Source: a virus
Taxonomy: Duplodnaviria; Heunggongvirae; Uroviricota; Caudoviricetes
Direction: 5' to 3' (one strand)
IMG/VR virus record: IMGVR_UViG_2667527588_000007
Span: 1 to 41,084 of that record
DNA length: 41,084 bases
In this document: one piece after another, positions 1,369 to 40,594 of the stretch
Position numbering within the stretch: the stretch's first letter is position 1
Layout: each line of letters opens with the position of its first letter
Translations under genes and position numbers: made by a program
The notes under the pieces: model-generated
Told to the model about the DNA's origin: nothing
Databases searched by the model: none
The model's input: the letters and a program-made list of their open reading frames with translations, nothing else

Positions 1369-1444
1369 GCCGATATAGCTCAGTTGGTAGAGCAGCGCAT
1401 TCGTAATGCGAAGGTCGTAGGTTCGACTCCTATTATCGGCACCA
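1369..1444 (+). tRNA. thrW: tRNA-Thr (anticodon CGU)
   Basis: 76-nt sequence GCCGATATAGCTCAGTTGGTAGAGCAGCGCATTCGTAATGCGAAGGTCGTAGGTTCGACTCCTATTATCGGCACCA; cloverleaf with anticodon loop TTCGTAA; encoded CCA end. Confidence 0.93.
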
Positions 1445-1458
1445 TTTAAATCAATAAG

Positions 1459-2622
1459 TTACACATCATTAGTACCTTCCTTATTTTTTGACTGGGACAA
1501 ATTTGGGACCGATGGGTTCAGGATCGAGTCTATTTGCCGTGCGTGCTCGGTAAGGTGATTAGGTGCAAGGTGAGCATATCGACGAACCATTTCGATAGAC
1601 TCCCAGCCTCCCATTTCCTGTAACACTGACAACGGGACTCCGGCTTGAACCAGCCAACTTGCCCAGGTGTGTCTCAGGTCGTGAAATCTGAAATCATCAA
1701 TACCAGCCCGTCTCAGCGCCGCTTTCCAGGCTGTGTTTGCGTCATACCGCATCTTCCTTACTGTTGGCGCTTTCGTTCCGTCTGGTTTGGTACAGCTTTC
1801 CTTGTACACAAATACCCAACGGTGATGATTCCCGATTTGTTTTTTCAAAACGCGACATGCAGTATCATTCAGCGCAACGCCGATTGCGCGGTTTGATTTA
1901 CTCTCTTCCGGGTTTATCCATGCCACTCGGCGCTGCATATCTATTTGTTGCCATTCAAGGTTGATGATGTTCGAGCGTCTTAAGCCTGTTGCCAGTGCAA
2001 ATTCAACAACAGACTTTAATGGCTCCGGACATTCATCAATCAGCCTTTGTGCTTCATGGGGCTCCAGCCAGCGGATCCGTTTATTCTTTGGTTGAGGCAC
2101 TTTAATAATTGGTGCCTTATCCAGCATTTTCCATTCACGCTCTGCGGCTCTTAGTAGGGCCTTTATAAATGAAAGATGCGTAGCCTTCGTTGCAACGGAC
2201 GCTGGTTTTGGCGTGTATTCTGGAACAGGTTTCCCTTTTTTTCTGCATGCTTCTGCCCTGAGTTTCCAGTTTTCCTCATGACGCCGGTTCGTCATTTTCT
2301 GCATTGCTGAATAAATTTTTGATTCAGTAATGTCTCTTAGTTGCATTCCTGCGAAATGTTGAAGCCAGAATCCGATCCGGCTTTTGTCATCGTCCAGTGA
2401 TTTTTTATGTGCTTTCTCTTCAAGCCACCTGACACATGCTTCCTCGAACGTTATATCAGGTATTTCACCAAGTTTACTGACCCGCCATGCTTCAGCCTTT
2501 AGCTTGTCATGGAGTTCTGTCGCCTGCCTTTTGTCCTTTGTTCCAAGAGACTGTTTAAATCTTTTACCGTTCGGCAATGTGAAACTGGCGTACCATATTT
2601 CACCTCTGCGGAAGAGTGACAT
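1459..2622 (-). CDS. int: tyrosine-type phage integrase
   Basis: 387 aa; C-terminal [39 protein letters not shown] (R..H-x-x-R..Y catalytic signature); GAGGAA RBS upstream of start; adjacent to tRNA. Confidence 0.92.
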
Positions 2623-7395: not shown

Positions 7396-8088
7396 TTAAT
7401 TATGTCTCTTAAGGGTTTGCGACTGACTGATTAAGACCTTTCCAAAGACCATGAATCGGTGTTCGTTTTCGCTAGTAATTCCCCATTCACGGTAAATCTG
7501 GTTATCAGAAATCACCAGCAGTTTGTCAGGAATCATTTGAAGTCTTTTAACGTATATTTTGTCATCAAAACCAAAGACATATATACCATCACCATCAAAC
7601 TGATTGATGCTGACATCAACGAAGATGAGATCTCCTGGCTCAATGGTTGGACACATACTGTCCCCACGAACGTTGATAACTTTGATGTGATTGGCTGGTC
7701 GTCCGCCGAACATTGATACAGCATTATCAGTTCTGTATTCGATGGCATGAATCACATCAATGACATCACCGCCCTGGATAAGGCCATTTCCCGCACTGGC
7801 ACTGATATCCAGCATTTCAATACGGAACACATCCTTCACCTGCGCAACATCCTCATTGTTACTGTTTTTATATACAGTATTACTTTTGTGGGCAGAGGTA
7901 AAGAGATCAGCAATATCAACACCTAAGCTCTTGGCAATATTACTCAGTGTTTGTTCGGTAAATTGTTTTTGCTTACCCGTTTCTAAGCGCGAGATGTTCG
8001 CCGCATCTACTCCTATCGCTTCAGCGAGATCGGCGATTTTCATGTTCTTCGCTTGGCGAAGTTGTCTGACTCGGTTTCCTATGTTCAT
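7396..8088 (-). CDS. cI: CI-type prophage repressor (XRE HTH + S24 LexA-like peptidase domain)
   Basis: N-terminal HTH (RVRQLRQAKNMKIADLAEAIGVDAANISRLETG), C-terminal S24 signature (GDSMCPTIEPGDLIFVD ... KRL); divergent from cro; no SD before ATG. Confidence 0.9.
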   Translation of the reverse strand: MNIGNRVRQLRQAKNMKIADLAEAIGVDAANISRLETGKQKQFTEQTLSNIAKSLGVDIADLFTSAHKSNTVYKNSNNEDVAQVKDVFRIEMLDISASAGNGLIQGGDVIDVIHAIEYRTDNAVSMFGGRPANHIKVINVRGDSMCPTIEPGDLIFVDVSINQFDGDGIYVFGFDDKIYVKRLQMIPDKLLVISDNQIYREWGITSENEHRFMVFGKVLISQSQTLKRHN

Positions 8089-34978: not shown

Positions 34979-35626
34979 ATGCATCGTATAGACACGAAAA
35001 CCGCGCAGAAGGATAAGTTCGGCGCGGGTAAGAACGGTTTTACCCGTGGTAACCCCCAGACAGGCACGCCTGCCACCGATCTGGATGATGACTACTTTGA
35101 CATGTTGCAGGAAGAACTCTGCAGCGTGGTGGAGGCATCCGGTGCCAGCCTGGAGAAGGGGCGAAACGACCAGTTGCTTACCGCGCTTCGTGCTCTGCTG
35201 TTAAGCCGCAAGAATCCGTTTGGTGATATCAAATCGGATGGCACGGTGAAAATGGCTCTCGAAAACCTTGGTTTGGGAGAAGCGGCAAAACGGAATGTGG
35301 GGACAGGAGAAAATCAGGTACCGGATATGAACAACTTTGGTAACTCATTGACCGCCAATGGATACCAGAAATTACCTGGGGGGATGATTATTCAATGGGG
35401 GAGTTTTTCTGTCTCACCAACCGGAGGAAGTGTTGGAACAGTTGATATAACATTACCTGTAGCTTTCCCTGCTGCTTGTCGTTCGGTAAACGCTCTTATT
35501 TCAACTAATGATCCTTCTGCCCGTTCTGTGGGCTTTGATATTGGAAGTACCAACAGAACTAAAATCAGATTTACTTACACTTCTGCTACAACAAATTCAA
35601 TTTACTGGATGGCTGTGGGGTATTAA
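34979..35626 (+). CDS. tail fibre protein (constant N-terminal part plus variable C-terminal part in current orientation)
   Basis: 215 aa; ORF crosses the left inversion site at 35258-35281 in frame. Confidence 0.75.
35258..35281. repeat. left recombination site of invertible segment (gix/hix-like)
   Basis: CTCGAAAACCTTGGTTTGGGAGAA; inverted relative to 37081-37106 with 2 central mismatches over about 20 bp. Confidence 0.7.
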
Positions 35627-35628
35627 CT

Positions 35629-36060
35629 ATGGAAAAGACATATTATTTTAATCCCTCTGATTCGGGATTTTATATTTCACCAGATAGCCAAACCATTCCT
35701 GAGAACGCTACGAAAATAAACTTTACTATTTATTCTGAGTTCGCAGGAGTTGCATGGCCTGATGGTAAAATACTTGGTTCAGATAAAAATGGTTTTCCAG
35801 CATGGCAGGATGCGCCACCACTTACCAGCGAAGAATTAATCTCAATCGCTGAATCAAATAAACAGCGATTAGTTAATCAGGCCAACGAATACATGAACAG
35901 TAAACAATGGCCTGGTAAAGCGGCGATTGGTCGTCTGAAAGGTGAGGAACTGGCGCAATATAATTTGTGGCTGGATTATCTGGACGCACTGGAACTGGTC
36001 GATACTTCCGGTGCGCCAGATATTGAATGGCCTACTCCTCCGGCAGTTCAGGCCAGATGA
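35629..36060 (+). CDS. tail fibre assembly protein
   Basis: 143 aa; C-terminal ...DYLDALELVDTSGAPDIEWPTPP motif shared with the inverted copy on the minus strand. Confidence 0.8.
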   Translation: MEKTYYFNPSDSGFYISPDSQTIPENATKINFTIYSEFAGVAWPDGKILGSDKNGFPAWQDAPPLTSEELISIAESNKQRLVNQANEYMNSKQWPGKAAIGRLKGEELAQYNLWLDYLDALELVDTSGAPDIEWPTPPAVQAR

Positions 36061-36634
36061 CATCCGGCGCGGTGCTGGTATCCGTTGCCGTCACCGCGTC
36101 AATGTAATCCAGCACAGCGTTTAGTCGGGTGGTTTCTGTCTGCGTCAGCTTCCTCCCGGCCTGCAATTTCAGTTGAATCAGACTAATGGAAGCCATTGCA
36201 GTATCAATTAGTGACTGTCGCTGTACTTCTGCCGCTTTTACTGCGGCACCATATTGTGCCTCAGTATCTGTCACCCATTTCTCACCATCCCATTTATCGT
36301 ATGGCGTTAATGGGACGATAGTGGTTGTATTTTCAGGGTAATCACCCGGAGCTGTGATTTCTTTTGATTCTCCTGTTTCAGTGCTATAGACAAATTCACC
36401 ACGATGGTCTGGCACATATATCCACGAGTTAAAATCTTCAGAACGGCAAATTGCATAACCAGTTTTGTATGGGCCAGGGGCATCTAAACAGGAACATGCC
36501 GGAATGCCGACACCAATGGCAAGATATTCTGTTGATGTGGAAATATATTCCCGCGTTTCACCATCATAATTATAAACGGTTATGTCTCCCGCTTTTATGG
36601 CAATGAGTTCGTTATTTAAGACAACTTTATTCAT
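36032..36634 (-). CDS. alternative tail fibre assembly protein (inverted orientation)
   Basis: 200 aa on minus strand; C-terminal ...DYIDAVTATDTSTAPDVIWPELP paralogous to 35629-36060 product. Confidence 0.75.
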   Translation of the reverse strand: MNKVVLNNELIAIKAGDITVYNYDGETREYISTSTEYLAIGVGIPACSCLDAPGPYKTGYAICRSEDFNSWIYVPDHRGEFVYSTETGESKEITAPGDYPENTTTIVPLTPYDKWDGEKWVTDTEAQYGAAVKAAEVQRQSLIDTAMASISLIQLKLQAGRKLTQTETTRLNAVLDYIDAVTATDTSTAPDVIWPELPEE

Positions 36635-37089
36635 CAGGCAGCCCTCACGATATAATTAAAGGCAATGTTACGAGGTCGGTTTTCGTTTGCAGTTGGAACA
36701 ACTCTGGAAGCATCGAATGTTACTCGCTTTGCATAACCACCTTTAATTGAATCCGATGAAGCATCTCCGATGACGCTGGTTGTAAAAACGCCAGAATCAG
36801 AAGGATAGGTATTGAACCTGACATCCACTAATGCACCAATTATATTTCGAATGGCATCGCCCTGTGATGAAAGCAAGCTACGGTTAGTATCTATTCCTCT
36901 TCCGTCATCCCAGCCACGAATAAACTCACCACGTAAATCTGGCAATTTATTTGTCGGATAAACTTTTGCCAGTTCCGGATACTCTTCGGCAGAAAAAGGC
37001 GCACCATTGCATTTCAGCCAGCCTGTTGGCGGAGTGGCTGAAGGCCACGGAACAGGCACACCAACGGGTAATGCCGAACCTTCTCCCAA
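36634..37089 (-). CDS. alternative tail fibre C-terminal segment (promoterless; expressed only after inversion)
   Basis: 151-aa ORF beginning inside the right inversion site; would fuse in frame (…LGLGE/GSALPVG…) to the constant fibre part after inversion. Confidence 0.65.
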   Translation of the reverse strand: MGEGSALPVGVPVPWPSATPPTGWLKCNGAPFSAEEYPELAKVYPTNKLPDLRGEFIRGWDDGRGIDTNRSLLSSQGDAIRNIIGALVDVRFNTYPSDSGVFTTSVIGDASSDSIKGGYAKRVTFDASRVVPTANENRPRNIAFNYIVRAA

Positions 37090-37106
37090 ACCAACCTTTT
37101 AGAAAA
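37081..37106. repeat. right recombination site of invertible segment
   Basis: TTCTCCCAAACCAACCTTTTAGAAAA, reverse complement of left site; directly upstream of invertase remnant. Confidence 0.7.
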
Positions 37107-37159
37107 TGCAGTAATTCCGCTCAGATGGCATGATCCAAGCTTTTTAAGGGGCATTTCTC

Positions 37160-37498
37160 ATGCTCATCGGTTATGTACGTGTGTCAACAAATGACCAGAA
37201 CACCGCATTGCAACGAAACGCACTGGAGTGCGCAGGATGTGAACTGATATTCGAGGATAAGATCAGCGGCAGATGGGGGGGCAGTCAGGGGGTTGCCCAG
37301 CTCAATTTGTTTGATGAAAACGCGCCACGCCCGGGTAGTGAGAAACTGATGGAAGTGTTGGATCACCTCAACGCCAAAGACGGCAGGGGAACCTTGTACT
37401 TTACCAGGCAGGGTATCCAGCCACAGTTGCAGATGAAACGCGAGATGCTTTCACCTAGATATACAACGAGATATGATGACATATTAAGAGTTAAATAG
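37160..37498 (+). pseudogene. serine DNA invertase (Pin/Gin/Hin family) remnant: only the first 37 codons conserved
   Basis: MLIGYVRVSTNDQNTALQRNALECAGCELIFEDKISG matches invertase N-terminus including catalytic Ser; downstream sequence in all frames lacks the remaining catalytic core; break coincides with a G7 run. Confidence 0.7.
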
Positions 37499-37517
37499 AA
37501 CATCAGCGAGGTGATAA

Positions 37518-38513
37518 ATGAAAGGGATATATTATGAGAATACTCGAACCTCTATACCGGGGTGGATATCAAACCTTCATGAAACTCAAAGGTTTGGTTA
37601 CGCTTATGAAACAAGTACTCACTTTGTTCATTTATATGGTAAAGCTGAACCTTTTAATGTCATATCAGTTGGCCTTACCGCAATACAAGGTAAAAGTGGG
37701 ACTCTAAATGATTGGGTTATAAATACATTTGGAGCAACTAACATCCAAACATTACAAAATGATATCGGACATGTTGTTGAAGGTGTCTGGAGACCATCTT
37801 TATATTATAGCGATGACATTCAAGGTGCGTTGTTAGTTGATCCGTTCGAGAAAATGTCGTCAGGACAAGCTCTGCGCAATCTTATTAATAAACTCGATGA
37901 ATTATTTTTGTACATTGAGCCAAGCATCACAGGTCTGAAAGCATATAGCCATAAATGCAGGGAGCTATTAATTTTGGCTTGTACAGAAGTTGAGAATCAG
38001 TGGGTGTCACTGATAAAAAAAACAAACCTAAATAATGTAGGGGCTAGATATACAACTAGGGACTATGTACGGCTTGCAGATAAATGTTTTTTAAAAGAAT
38101 ACAAGGTGAATTTTAAAAATTACTCAGGCTTAAGAGATTTCACACCATTTTTATCTTGGGTTCCGACTGCCTCTACTGGCTCTTTACCTTGGTACGATGC
38201 TTATAATGGAACTAAGCATGATAGGGAAGCAGGTTTTAATCTCGCATCATTGGAGAATGTGATGGATGCCTTATCTGCTTGTATAGTATTGTATTGTGTT
38301 AAATATGGACCTTATGATTTGGTGTCTGGTGGGGATCTGCTTTCAGGAACGTTTAACGAGCATTTTTCTCTTAGTTTCATAAATAGTGATAAAAGTAGCT
38401 ATTACGTTCCCGAATTGAATTTTAACGCAAACGCAATAACAGACTTGTGTGTGATTGACTGTTATAGAGAAAAACTCAACAAAGCATGGGTTACAGAACC
38501 TCTTGTTTTATAG
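37518..38513 (+). CDS. hypothetical protein (AT-rich accessory gene at invertase-proximal hotspot)
   Basis: 331 aa, GAGGTG RBS, AT-rich with Asn/Tyr-rich composition; occupies DNA that replaced the invertase 3' portion. Confidence 0.6.
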   Translation: MKGIYYENTRTSIPGWISNLHETQRFGYAYETSTHFVHLYGKAEPFNVISVGLTAIQGKSGTLNDWVINTFGATNIQTLQNDIGHVVEGVWRPSLYYSDDIQGALLVDPFEKMSSGQALRNLINKLDELFLYIEPSITGLKAYSHKCRELLILACTEVENQWVSLIKKTNLNNVGARYTTRDYVRLADKCFLKEYKVNFKNYSGLRDFTPFLSWVPTASTGSLPWYDAYNGTKHDREAGFNLASLENVMDALSACIVLYCVKYGPYDLVSGGDLLSGTFNEHFSLSFINSDKSSYYVPELNFNANAITDLCVIDCYREKLNKAWVTEPLVL

Positions 38514-39174
38514 GTAGTATTAATTCAGCACCTTGATTTTTTGTATTTCCCACGGCACGCGTCACGGCGTGCCAGATAAACGTGTCGGCAGACGCTGTAC
38601 CCTTAGCAACAATCTCCTCCACCACTCTACCTACGACATTCTGCCGTATCCACTCACGAGCTGCTTCCGGTGATAGCACCAGCGGCCGGCGATCATGAAT
38701 ATCTACCAGCCCTTTATCCGCAGCAGTAGTTACAATCAGGAACCCCTCAGCTTCATCGCCACGTTCAAATGGTGTGCTGCCAATAGCGGCCATGAATATA
38801 GGCTGGCCGTCAGCCCTGCGAATGAAGTAGGGCTGTTTTATAATGCCTTCGCGCTTCCATTCGAACCAACCATCAGCAAAGCAAATTGCACGTCCATGCA
38901 ACCAGAGAGGTTTGAACATTCGGCTGGTGGCCGCAGTTTCTGAGCGTGCGTTAATCAGCGGAGGTTTATTCCACCATCCGGGAGCGAATCCCCAGATAAC
39001 AGGATCGAGGTGCAACTGTTCGTCGCGTTCGCTCAAAAGCAGAACTTTGGTACCGGGTGCAACGTTGAATCGTCCAATTGGTTCTGGAACGTATGGGATG
39101 TCACGCTCAGCTTCTTCTGATAGGAGGGCAAGATAGTCTTCACGCGTCATTGATTGGGCGAAACGTCCGCACAT
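38491..39174 (-). CDS. SOS-response-associated peptidase (SRAP / YedK-like abasic-site processing protein)
   Basis: N-terminal MCGRFAQ with catalytic Cys2; 227 aa; GGAGG RBS. Confidence 0.8.
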   Translation of the reverse strand: MCGRFAQSMTREDYLALLSEEAERDIPYVPEPIGRFNVAPGTKVLLLSERDEQLHLDPVIWGFAPGWWNKPPLINARSETAATSRMFKPLWLHGRAICFADGWFEWKREGIIKQPYFIRRADGQPIFMAAIGSTPFERGDEAEGFLIVTTAADKGLVDIHDRRPLVLSPEAAREWIRQNVVGRVVEEIVAKGTASADTFIWHAVTRAVGNTKNQGAELILPIKQEVL

Positions 39175-39217
39175 AGAAACCTCCAGTCACCAGACTGAAA
39201 GTATAGGGTAGGGATAC

Positions 39218-39242
39218 AAAAAAGCCCGCATAAGCGGGCTTT
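39218..39242 (-). terminator. intrinsic terminator (minus-strand orientation)
   Basis: GCCCGC-ATAA-GCGGGC hairpin with A6 on plus strand (U-run on minus-strand transcript). Confidence 0.6.
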
Positions 39243-39370
39243 CATGTCACTCGGGAGCCGCGGCTCCTTTACGTATCCTTTTTTGTCTCCTCACCGTCTA
39301 GTCGGTGTCCTGCTGAGACTGCTAACTTCCTGTTTTTGTTAGTGCTGTCCTGGCACTGTCCAATCATGAT

Positions 39371-39398
39371 TGGTGGAGCTGGCGGGAGTTGAACCCGC
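39371..39398 (-). other. 28-nt fragment identical to the 3' end of tmRNA (ssrA); probable att-site remnant
   Basis: Minus strand reads GCGGGTTCAACTCCCGCCAGCTCCACCA, the T-arm and acceptor 3' end of E. coli tmRNA as recalled; upstream sequence does not continue the tmRNA. Confidence 0.55.
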
Positions 39399-39689
39399 AG
39401 ACACGTCGTATGCAAGAACTTGCTGCGGCTGGATGGTGGACTTTCGATAGTGCGAGTATTGAATGATGTCCAGCCGTTATTGATTTTACGTATTTTTTGC
39501 ATGAAAAGATTAGCACCTCATCCCACCGCTCCTCCATGATTTTACACCACTGTCTCTAGAGCTCTGTGTGCCAGAAGCGGAAGTTCATACCTCTAAGTGG
39601 ATATTTTGTTAAAATATGCCATCAAAATCCTTGCTACCTCATGGTTGACAGTGATAAAAGTTGCACAAATTACTGAGAGAGAAATTACA

Positions 39690-40127
39690 ATGAGTGGAGA
39701 TACCTCTGAGTTTCCTAATAAACTTCCCAGAAAGCCAATAGGTTGGCGTGAAGAATATAGTGATTTTACAGGTAGTATTATATTCTATATGATATTCCCG
39801 TTGCTTCCATTACTTTTTGAGTCAATTAACACAGGAACTCACCCTTCAATACAATCATTAACAATTACTGCATCAATATACTCTTTTTCCATCGGTGTAT
39901 CTTCTCGAGATAAAGCTATTTTTTGCTTAGGGATTTTTTGTGGTTTCATTCTCGCTTATCTTTACGGTAAAGTTAGTGAGCCAAAAGTTATTATATATAC
40001 CTGGTACTATGTAGTTACGGTGATACTACTGGCTGTAATATTTATATTTCATCTTCTCGAACGATTTAATAAACACGTGGTAGAATGTGAACCTGTTTTC
40101 TCCTTTAAGTTTACGAGAGGTATGTAA
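39690..40127 (+). CDS. hypothetical multi-pass membrane protein
   Basis: ATG at 39690 preceded by purine-rich GAGAGAGA and a TTGACA -35-like motif (39645-39650); AT-rich; several hydrophobic segments; track start at 39597 is GTG. Confidence 0.5.
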   Translation: MSGDTSEFPNKLPRKPIGWREEYSDFTGSIIFYMIFPLLPLLFESINTGTHPSIQSLTITASIYSFSIGVSSRDKAIFCLGIFCGFILAYLYGKVSEPKVIIYTWYYVVTVILLAVIFIFHLLERFNKHVVECEPVFSFKFTRGM

Positions 40128-40594
40128 TGGAGGATATTATATTTATGTATGCTGGGTTGATAGTGTCTTCTTTAGCGGCAATTGTAGGCTTAGCTACATC
40201 TATCATGCATACTCGTAAAAAAGTTAAAGCTAATGAAGAGCTTGCAACTGAAATGGCAAAGAGCTTTAGTGAGCTTGAATCTATCAATAAAAGCATAGGG
40301 GATTTGGAAGCGACAATTAAAAGGATAGATGAAGATGAATTAAAGTTAAGAATAGCAATTGAATCTTTAAAGGAAATGACTTCTGATGAAAAAAAAGAAT
40401 CTAGGGATATGTTGAAAAACATCGTTAATGATGAGGTGTTCATTAAAGTTCTTCTCGAAAGCTATAAAAAACTGGATACCCAGTCAAAGAAGGAGATTTA
40501 TTTGACTTTTTCCAAGTCGACAGATAGAGGCCTTTATCGATATATAAAAAGAATAGCTTCATCAGTACTCGATAACTTAATGGTTAAAATATAA
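40127..40594 (+). CDS. hypothetical membrane-anchored coiled-coil protein
   Basis: TAATG coupling to upstream gene; GAGAGG RBS; N-terminal TM helix followed by Glu/Lys-rich helical region; AT-rich. Confidence 0.55.
   Translation: MEDIIFMYAGLIVSSLAAIVGLATSIMHTRKKVKANEELATEMAKSFSELESINKSIGDLEATIKRIDEDELKLRIAIESLKEMTSDEKKESRDMLKNIVNDEVFIKVLLESYKKLDTQSKKEIYLTFSKSTDRGLYRYIKRIASSVLDNLMVKI

Follow-up and report, generated by a model that had tools for sequence, protein, structure and literature searches.

Positions 38,491–39,174 of the window (the whole 41,084 nt stretch of DNA that was analysed) contain, on the minus strand, an intact ATG-initiated ORF of 227 aa whose product starts with MCGRF and is an SRAP, or YedK-type, abasic-site processing protein; a Shine-Dalgarno sequence, GGAGG (39,180–39,184, minus strand), can be read 5 nt upstream of the start codon. 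The preliminary description had proposed a YedK-like SRAP protein at this position, on the opposite strand and with its own RBS, and the profile searches, phmmer and the active-site residues all agree with it. The Pfam profile SRAP (PF02586) matches residues 1–210 over profile positions 1–213 of 214 (E = 2.5e-48), the protein scores 430 bits with the NCBIfam model of the YedK subfamily (PRK09951; cutoff 349), and phmmer retrieved the YedK chains 6kcq, 6nua, 6kbs and 2icu with E-values from about 1e-127 to 2e-127. An ungapped alignment with YedK from E. coli K-12 showed 182 identical residues out of 222 (82%), including the catalytic Cys2, Asn75, Glu105 and His160, and the basic DNA-channel residues Arg77, Arg85 and Arg162 of YedK are also kept. 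Identity was 85–96% over residues 1–175 and 55% over the last 47, and the window protein has a C-terminal extension of five residues that reaches into the neighbouring gene, hyp331. The window SRAP is thus like E. coli YedK (6NUA, 6KCQ, 6KBS, 2ICU) in fold family, length class and active site. The SRAP domain of human HMCES (5KO9, 6OE7) shares the superfamily and the Cys2-thiazolidine chemistry, but it is a distant, partial match (E about 5e-16) within a eukaryotic architecture with extra C-terminal regions.

After the loss of Met1, the alpha-amine and the thiol of Cys2 from YedK react with the ring-opened AP site of ssDNA to give a thiazolidine, with Glu105 and His160 catalysing ring opening and Schiff-base formation (PMC9436759). 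Cys2 of the window protein aligns with C2 of YedK and is N-terminal after the predicted removal of Met. Because all the catalytic and the tested DNA-channel residues are conserved, the same chemistry is predicted for the window SRAP: Cys2 would attack an abasic site of ssDNA at its ring-opened aldehyde, with catalysis by Glu105 and His160, and the resulting thiazolidine DNA-protein crosslink would shield the site from strand cleavage and error-prone bypass.

Comparison of the window gene with five relatives yielded dN values of about 0.10–0.13, with dS at or near saturation; the dN/dS ratio was 0.04–0.07 where computable, which records long-term history and is no proof of selection in this prophage specifically, and indicates a protein-coding gene under purifying selection. 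The nearest non-identical representatives of 90% identity clusters, from Enterobacter, Citrobacter and E. coli, are 83–84% identical to the window protein. The exact protein has 88 blocks listed in the assembly collection, and all ten of the places shown, with 24 contigs read, adjoin hyp331 in the same prophage.

Gene hyp331 (37,518–38,513, plus strand), coding for a 331-aa protein with a putative HEPN-like helical domain (phrog_19461, full length), is convergent with the SRAP gene, with their 3′ ends overlapping by 23 nt. It is preceded by an ORF of 112 aa (37,160–37,498, plus strand; Pfam, NCBIfam and PHROGs) that is an in-frame fusion of two pieces. The first 37 or so residues (37,160 to about 37,269) correspond to the N-terminus of a Pin-type DNA invertase, with Pfam Resolvase over residues 3–39, and residues 42–112 are the last approximately 71 residues of UmuC, with Pfam DUF4113 over residues 61–111 and the NCBIfam UmuC model aligned at positions 352–422 of 422. 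In agreement with this, the PHROGs matches of the ORF are to DNA invertase and DNA polymerase, and RefSeq annotates both the pin and the umuC pieces as pseudogenes. Homology to pinE from sister prophages stops at position 37,269, and homology to phage umuC begins at 37,282 and continues to the umuC stop codon at 37,496–37,498. An intact umuDC pair is not found beside the SRAP gene in Pfam and NCBIfam searches, with umuD absent and umuC reduced to residues from about 352 to 422.

At the other side of the SRAP gene lies a 3′ fragment of ssrA (39,371–39,398, minus strand) comprising the T-arm, the 3′ acceptor strand and CCA. The preliminary description had located the SRAP gene between an invertase remnant and a tmRNA fragment; both are indeed there, but it missed that a umuC remnant is fused to the invertase, as well as the 331-aa gene, and the tmRNA fragment, although derived from ssrA, is just the last 28 nt of this gene. 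Rfam tmRNA matches at these positions score under the gathering threshold, with the alignment confined to the 28 nt, and ARAGORN called no tmRNA gene. Since the 28-nt 3′ core alone aligns, a tmRNA gene next to the SRAP gene, whether full length or shortened by an internal deletion, can be excluded. Positions 38,641–39,398 of the window are colinear, with 82% identity, with the sequence of a lambdoid prophage from E. coli 19AR1321 from its SRAP gene through the final 28 nt of the genuine ssrA gene, indicating that the fragment in the window is the att core of a phage that integrates at ssrA.

The surrounding DNA is a prophage. The window opens with a 417-aa ORF of the aldehyde dehydrogenase family that, by its length and its position with respect to the K-12 map, we take to be proA, and the attachment site is the tRNA-Thr(CGT) gene thrW (1,369–1,444, plus strand; ARAGORN and Rfam). 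A repeat search showed that the last 48 nt of thrW (attL, 1,399–1,446) recur about 70 nt past the end of the window (attR, equivalent to position ~41,150), from which we deduce a prophage length of about 39.8 kb, with the SRAP gene about 2 kb inward from its right end. The prophage contains a tyrosine integrase gene (1,459–2,622, minus strand; Pfam Phage_integrase, E = 3.2e-48) and a gene for a LexA-like S24 CI repressor, its structural genes are 97% identical to those of the Shigella serotype-converting phages SfII, SfI, SfIV and SfV, and its RefSeq annotation includes e14-type gene names (ymfR, ymfQ and tfaE). RefSeq also annotates the surrounding 40 kb as prophage in E. coli TB06052, whose chromosome is 100% identical to positions 37,100–39,600 of the window.

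The region containing the SRAP gene varies among related phages. The slot from the tail-fibre assembly gene to attP/int is occupied by the conversion genes gtrABV in SfV, and a segment of about 375 bp (39,210–39,585) is conserved in sister prophages, which carry other cargo between pinE and this segment: a 502-aa uncharacterised protein in strain A2; a GIY-YIG protein, IS1 and a type II restriction-modification pair in strain Res13; and a DUF4145 protein in other E. coli prophages. From this diversity it follows that the window SRAP occupies the variable cargo region of the phage family and is cargo carried at thrW by an integrated SfV/e14-like prophage, as had been anticipated when it was described as mobile-element cargo; a canonical yedK is found elsewhere in the same genome.

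This canonical copy decides whether the window gene could be the sole yedK ortholog of the host, vertically inherited in a conserved backbone, an explanation initially compatible with its 82% identity to YedK and with its passing PRK09951. Gene yedK from K-12 (b1931), in the backbone of the fli region, is flanked by yedF and yedL, and so is the canonical gene from TB06052 (1,974,018–1,974,686), on the same chromosome as the window gene, which sits between the thrW attL and attR of the prophage. Additionally, a yedK-like match was found in 5,378 of 5,426 complete E. coli genomes, whereas the window allele was found in one. We consequently give this explanation practically no credit, and the window gene is a paralog, not an ortholog, of the backbone gene. 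The comparison with the chromosomal yedK, suggested beforehand, further revealed that the two copies from TB06052 share 81.5% protein and 73% DNA identity; this nucleotide identity, together with the saturated dS, rules out a recent duplication of the host gene, which is also at odds with nearest non-identical cluster representatives at only 83–84%. Overall, the 5,378 genomes contained 5,530 yedK-like places, with more than one place in roughly 2% of them, and 41 of the 5,530 were plasmid-borne. Matches to yedK in E. coli may thus be prophage paralogs, which should be considered during annotation.

The occurrence of SRAP genes beside UmuC-UmuD, and in temperate phages and prophages, was already described in 2013 by Aravind et al. 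(PMC3765255), with examples such as YoqW from the B. subtilis phage SPbeta and an SRAP protein from a Burkholderia prophage; these are temperate-phage-borne like the window SRAP, although YoqW is a distant member of the family. Among closer relatives, we found an intact arrangement of umuD and umuC followed by a variable insert and a convergent SRAP gene, bordered by the tail-fibre genes on one side and the attachment site on the other, in three elements whose SRAP proteins are 79–80% identical to the window protein. In the ssrA prophage of 19AR1321 there is no insert, and umuC and the SRAP gene overlap by 24 nt; in Escherichia phage PHB10 (MK524177) the insert consists of cold-shock genes and small ORFs, and the SRAP gene adjoins int; and in Klebsiella phage ST846-OXA48phi9.2 (MK416022) the insert contains XRE and ImmA genes. 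In 19AR1321 and PHB10, umuD has a near-consensus LexA box (TACTGTATATAAAAACAGTA) upstream. The window locus retains the order of these cassettes, with the SRAP gene convergent with the umuC remnant across a variable gap, att-proximal and after the tail-fibre genes. In contrast to them, it lacks umuD and the LexA box, its 71 codons of umuC are fused to a truncated pin, and it resides in another type of phage, an SfV/e14-like element at thrW. In Enterobacter hormaechei, a unit composed of the umuC 3′ end, hyp331, the SRAP gene and its leader is colinear with positions 37,308–39,228 of the window (72% nucleotide identity) and is followed by a LexA-boxed dinI; this shows that the order umuC-hyp331-SRAP is older than its arrival in this prophage.

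Several related prophages contain the SRAP gene next to umuDC genes in differing states of decay. As opposed to the window, where umuD is gone, 71 codons of umuC remain and the SRAP gene adjoins hyp331 and then the ssrA core, the prophage from strain AR_0128, also at the thrW site, contains a frameshifted umuC 3′ remnant with an intact pin, and its SRAP gene lies beside a tRNA-Pro gene with no ssrA core. In AH01, at the icd/e14 site, a frameshifted S24 peptidase gene, presumably umuD, abuts an intact SRAP gene, and in strain 1943 nothing is left of umuDC and the SRAP gene directly follows a tail-fibre assembly gene. Residues C2, N75, E105 and H160 are kept by the SRAP proteins from all four (window, AR_0128, AH01 and strain 1943), and the pattern suggests that SRAP is the part retained while umuDC decays in e14/SfV-like prophages. 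Gifsy-2 also contains an unannotated homologous ORF near its right end; unlike the window copy, which is full length, this ORF diverges and terminates past residue ~178.

The umuC remnant, overlooked in the preliminary description, explains the origin of the window SRAP gene. The comparisons place the gene in a cassette of enterobacterial temperate phages, with a LexA box, umuD, umuC, a variable insert and a convergent SRAP gene, located from the tail-fibre genes to the att site. A piece of this cassette, from the umuC 3′ end through hyp331 and the SRAP gene to its leader, is now found, together with an ssrA-type att arm, in the accessory slot of an SfV/e14-like prophage at thrW. The left junction, joining codon ~37 of pin to codon ~352 of umuC, appears to be illegitimate. 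On the right, the homology that the SRAP unit shares with PHB10, Gifsy-2, AH01, AR_0128 and strain 1943 stops at 39,206–39,214, the e14-like backbone of A2 and Res13 resumes at 39,210/39,216, and about 180 bp (39,216–39,398) are common to this backbone and the ssrA prophage; the right junction would lie within this shared stretch. Homologous exchange at the right and an illegitimate join at the left are thus a plausible history for the insertion, as judged from these breakpoints. Pol V has been lost, and the SRAP gene has stayed intact under purifying selection.

The preserved pairing of hyp331 with the SRAP gene raises the possibility of a two-gene module, such as an anti-phage or toxin-immunity pair in a defence slot. 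In both the E. coli prophage and E. hormaechei (67% and 83% protein identity), the 3′ ends of the pair overlap by the same 23 nt, the slot of sister prophages contains restriction-modification, GIY-YIG and DUF4145 genes, and homologs of hyp331 have an HNH gene as neighbour in a P2 hotspot, occur in an ICE, and elsewhere accompany Gabija-like and NACHT genes with umuDC. The product of hyp331 has no match in Pfam, NCBIfam or PADLOC, but has 543 homologs of uniform length and 46–68% identity in Proteobacteria, Bacteroidota, Spirochaetes, Planctomycetes and others. A confident AlphaFold2 model (pLDDT 92.7, pTM 0.91) was obtained, and an invariant stretch, Y229-N230-x-T232-K233-H234-x-R236, bears an imperfect likeness to the Rx4-6H motif, with Tyr at the position expected for Arg. 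Nevertheless, none of 79 species-level loci with hyp331 relatives contained an SRAP gene within 5 kb, which rules out an obligate coupling of both genes, and the SRAP gene occurs without hyp331 in PHB10, 19AR1321, AR_0128, AH01 and strain 1943. The two genes are also convergent, and hence not cotranscribed, and PADLOC matched neither of them, so that they do not correspond to a known defence system. We therefore see hyp331 as an independent, probably defence-related cargo placed in the gap between umuC and the SRAP gene, not an obligate partner, and consider a two-gene module very unlikely.

The control region of the SRAP gene was compared with those of its relatives. The leader (CCCTATACTTTCAGTCTG..ACTGGAGGTTTCTATG), including GGAGG, is conserved among the prophage copies and, less strictly, ahead of K-12 yedK, whose leader and RBS resemble those of the window gene. 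A −10-like hexamer, TATACT (39,200–39,205, minus strand), is kept in the copies from 19AR1321, PHB10 and Enterobacter, with TATTCT at the equivalent spot of K-12 yedK; a scan for consensus sigma-70 promoters called none between the upstream hairpin and the SRAP ATG, with no recognisable −35, so that we can only infer a promoter role for TATACT. The hairpin is terminator-like (GCCCGC-TTAT-GCGGGC followed by TTTTTT; 39,218–39,239, on the strand of the SRAP gene), lies 44 nt before the SRAP gene, and is also conserved in the 19AR1321 prophage, directly downstream of ssrA. A check for a LexA box in the SRAP promoter had been suggested as well, and we found none: positions 39,100–39,700 contain no CTG-N10-CAG sequence (CTGT-N8-ACAG type), there are no matches to the LexA 20-mer with up to three mismatches or to its 16-mer core with up to one mismatch within 37,000–39,700, and the sole strong LexA box of the whole window is at 7,860–7,879. 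Direct LexA control of the gene was discarded from these three scans, and its expression would lie outside such control.

These features are also relevant to the 2013 proposal by Aravind et al. (PMC3765255) that SRAP proteins are autopeptidases, which here would act as an induction switch. Apart from the published proposal, this idea could find some backing in the LexA-like S24 CI repressor of the prophage. Against it, later biochemistry showed crosslinking to AP sites, not peptidase action, for SRAP proteins (PMC9436759), and the window gene sits at the opposite end of the prophage to the immunity region, follows a terminator and has no regulatory link, so we regard a switch as extremely improbable.

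The absence of a LexA box or a consensus promoter, the terminator-like hairpin 44 nt upstream, the destruction of the former partners umuD and umuC, and the fact that the host already owns yedK could all be expected if the window gene had survived intact, without selection, as a neutral passenger of a decaying cassette, of no use to phage or host. The gene, however, is full length with every catalytic residue present, its dN/dS is low, the −10-like element and the leader are conserved, and in each of the four differing states of umuDC decay SRAP is the intact survivor. Although it deserves more weight than the other alternatives, we consider a neutral leftover unlikely. A separate reading is that SRAP has a phage-directed role, as a selected unit of the cassette kept after the loss of Pol V, either alone or with hyp331 as a lineage-specific module; it might then shield ssDNA intermediates of the prophage, counter immunity of the glycosylase type (for instance Brig1), or crosslink abasic sites of superinfecting phages. 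We see little probability in such a role, although slightly more than in the two-gene module above.

Taken together, we consider it probable that the window SRAP is a functional, prophage-borne yedK paralog, the remnant of a phage umuDC-SRAP cassette, that provides extra protection of abasic sites in ssDNA. This YedK-type protection would benefit the lysogen and, possibly, replicating prophage DNA; protection of phage DNA during replication or damage tolerance at induction, as first put forward, are plausible roles. The possibility that we were dealing with the only chromosomal yedK ortholog was dismissed by the yedF-yedK-yedL locus elsewhere on the chromosome.

The window SRAP is an ordinary, already described type of phage cargo, and the locus leaves what is known of the SRAP mechanism unaltered; mildly new are two points, that umuDC has decayed repeatedly around an intact SRAP gene within a single phage family and that the unit of umuC 3′ end, hyp331 and SRAP gene is conserved. 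It provides a clean case of a DNA damage tolerance gene that travels on temperate phages apart from the copy of the host. In this phage family, the abasic-site shield was kept whereas the adjoining genes for a mutagenic polymerase decayed repeatedly, a pattern hinting that SRAP may be useful to the lysogen or to the phage without Pol V.

The DNA invertase gene pin survives in the window only as the start of a chimeric 112-aa ORF (positions 37160-37498) in which the first ~37 codons of pin continue, without a change of frame, into the ~71 codons at the 3' end of umuC; in the RefSeq annotation the two halves appear as two separate pseudogenes. Immediately upstream, an invertible tail-fibre segment (~35600-37100) contains two alternative fibre C-termini, each with its assembly gene, and this segment was found in both orientations among genomes carrying the identical truncated pin'-'umuC fusion (loci L005-L014). 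Inversion is apparently still ongoing, with an invertase presumably being supplied in trans.

The right end of the prophage contains a ~375-bp segment (39216-39585), conserved among thrW-integrated e14/SfV-like prophages, that includes both the 28-nt 3' core of ssrA and ~150 bp found 3' of this gene in an ssrA-integrated lambdoid prophage. The segment resembles an att region left behind as a fossil by a different phage; the equivalent place beside the SRAP gene of strain AR_0128 is occupied by a tRNA-Pro gene instead. Next to this segment of the window there are two adjoining genes of 176 and 155 aa without known function (39597-40594), with a low GC content of 33%; the first matches phrog_22626 and the second gave only weak matches of coiled-coil type. 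Strain A2 has both genes conserved at the corresponding end of its prophage, as do most of the 10 places shown for the exact SRAP protein. Past the end of the window, in the chromosome of E. coli TB06052, the prophage attR gives way to a second element that encodes an integrase of its own (L001, 22660 and 35258); beyond this element lie an ABC-three-component system, higA and traJ. The second element is bounded by a further thrW repeat, of 22 nt, indicating that the elements were inserted in tandem at thrW.

At the other side of the prophage, a near-consensus LexA box (TACTGTTTTTATATACAGTA, 7860-7879), with two mismatches and none expected by chance, is situated within the coding sequence of a CI-like repressor on the minus strand (7396-8088), in the part that separates the HTH domain from the S24 domain.

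An unannotated SRAP ORF (MCGRFAQAQTREEY...) is also present near the right end of Gifsy-2, downstream of sseI (NC_010393.1, ~43494-44100); compared with YedK, its product diverges after residue ~178 and ends early. Even the "chromosomal" yedK of K-12 (within 2009821-2012780) has prophage remains nearby: intG, an integrase remnant belonging to the cryptic prophage PR-G, is ~2 kb away, as is the pseudogene yedN.

The gene adjoining the 3' end of SRAP, hyp331 (37518-38513, 331 aa), belongs to a family of uniform length and without a Pfam model, whose members show 46-68% identity across distant phyla. A confident AlphaFold model of hyp331 contains a possible HEPN-like helical domain, and its homologues occupy defence-hotspot sites, including the P2 hotspot, an ICE, and positions beside Gabija or NACHT genes. 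We therefore consider hyp331 a candidate for an uncharacterised defence or abortive-infection gene.
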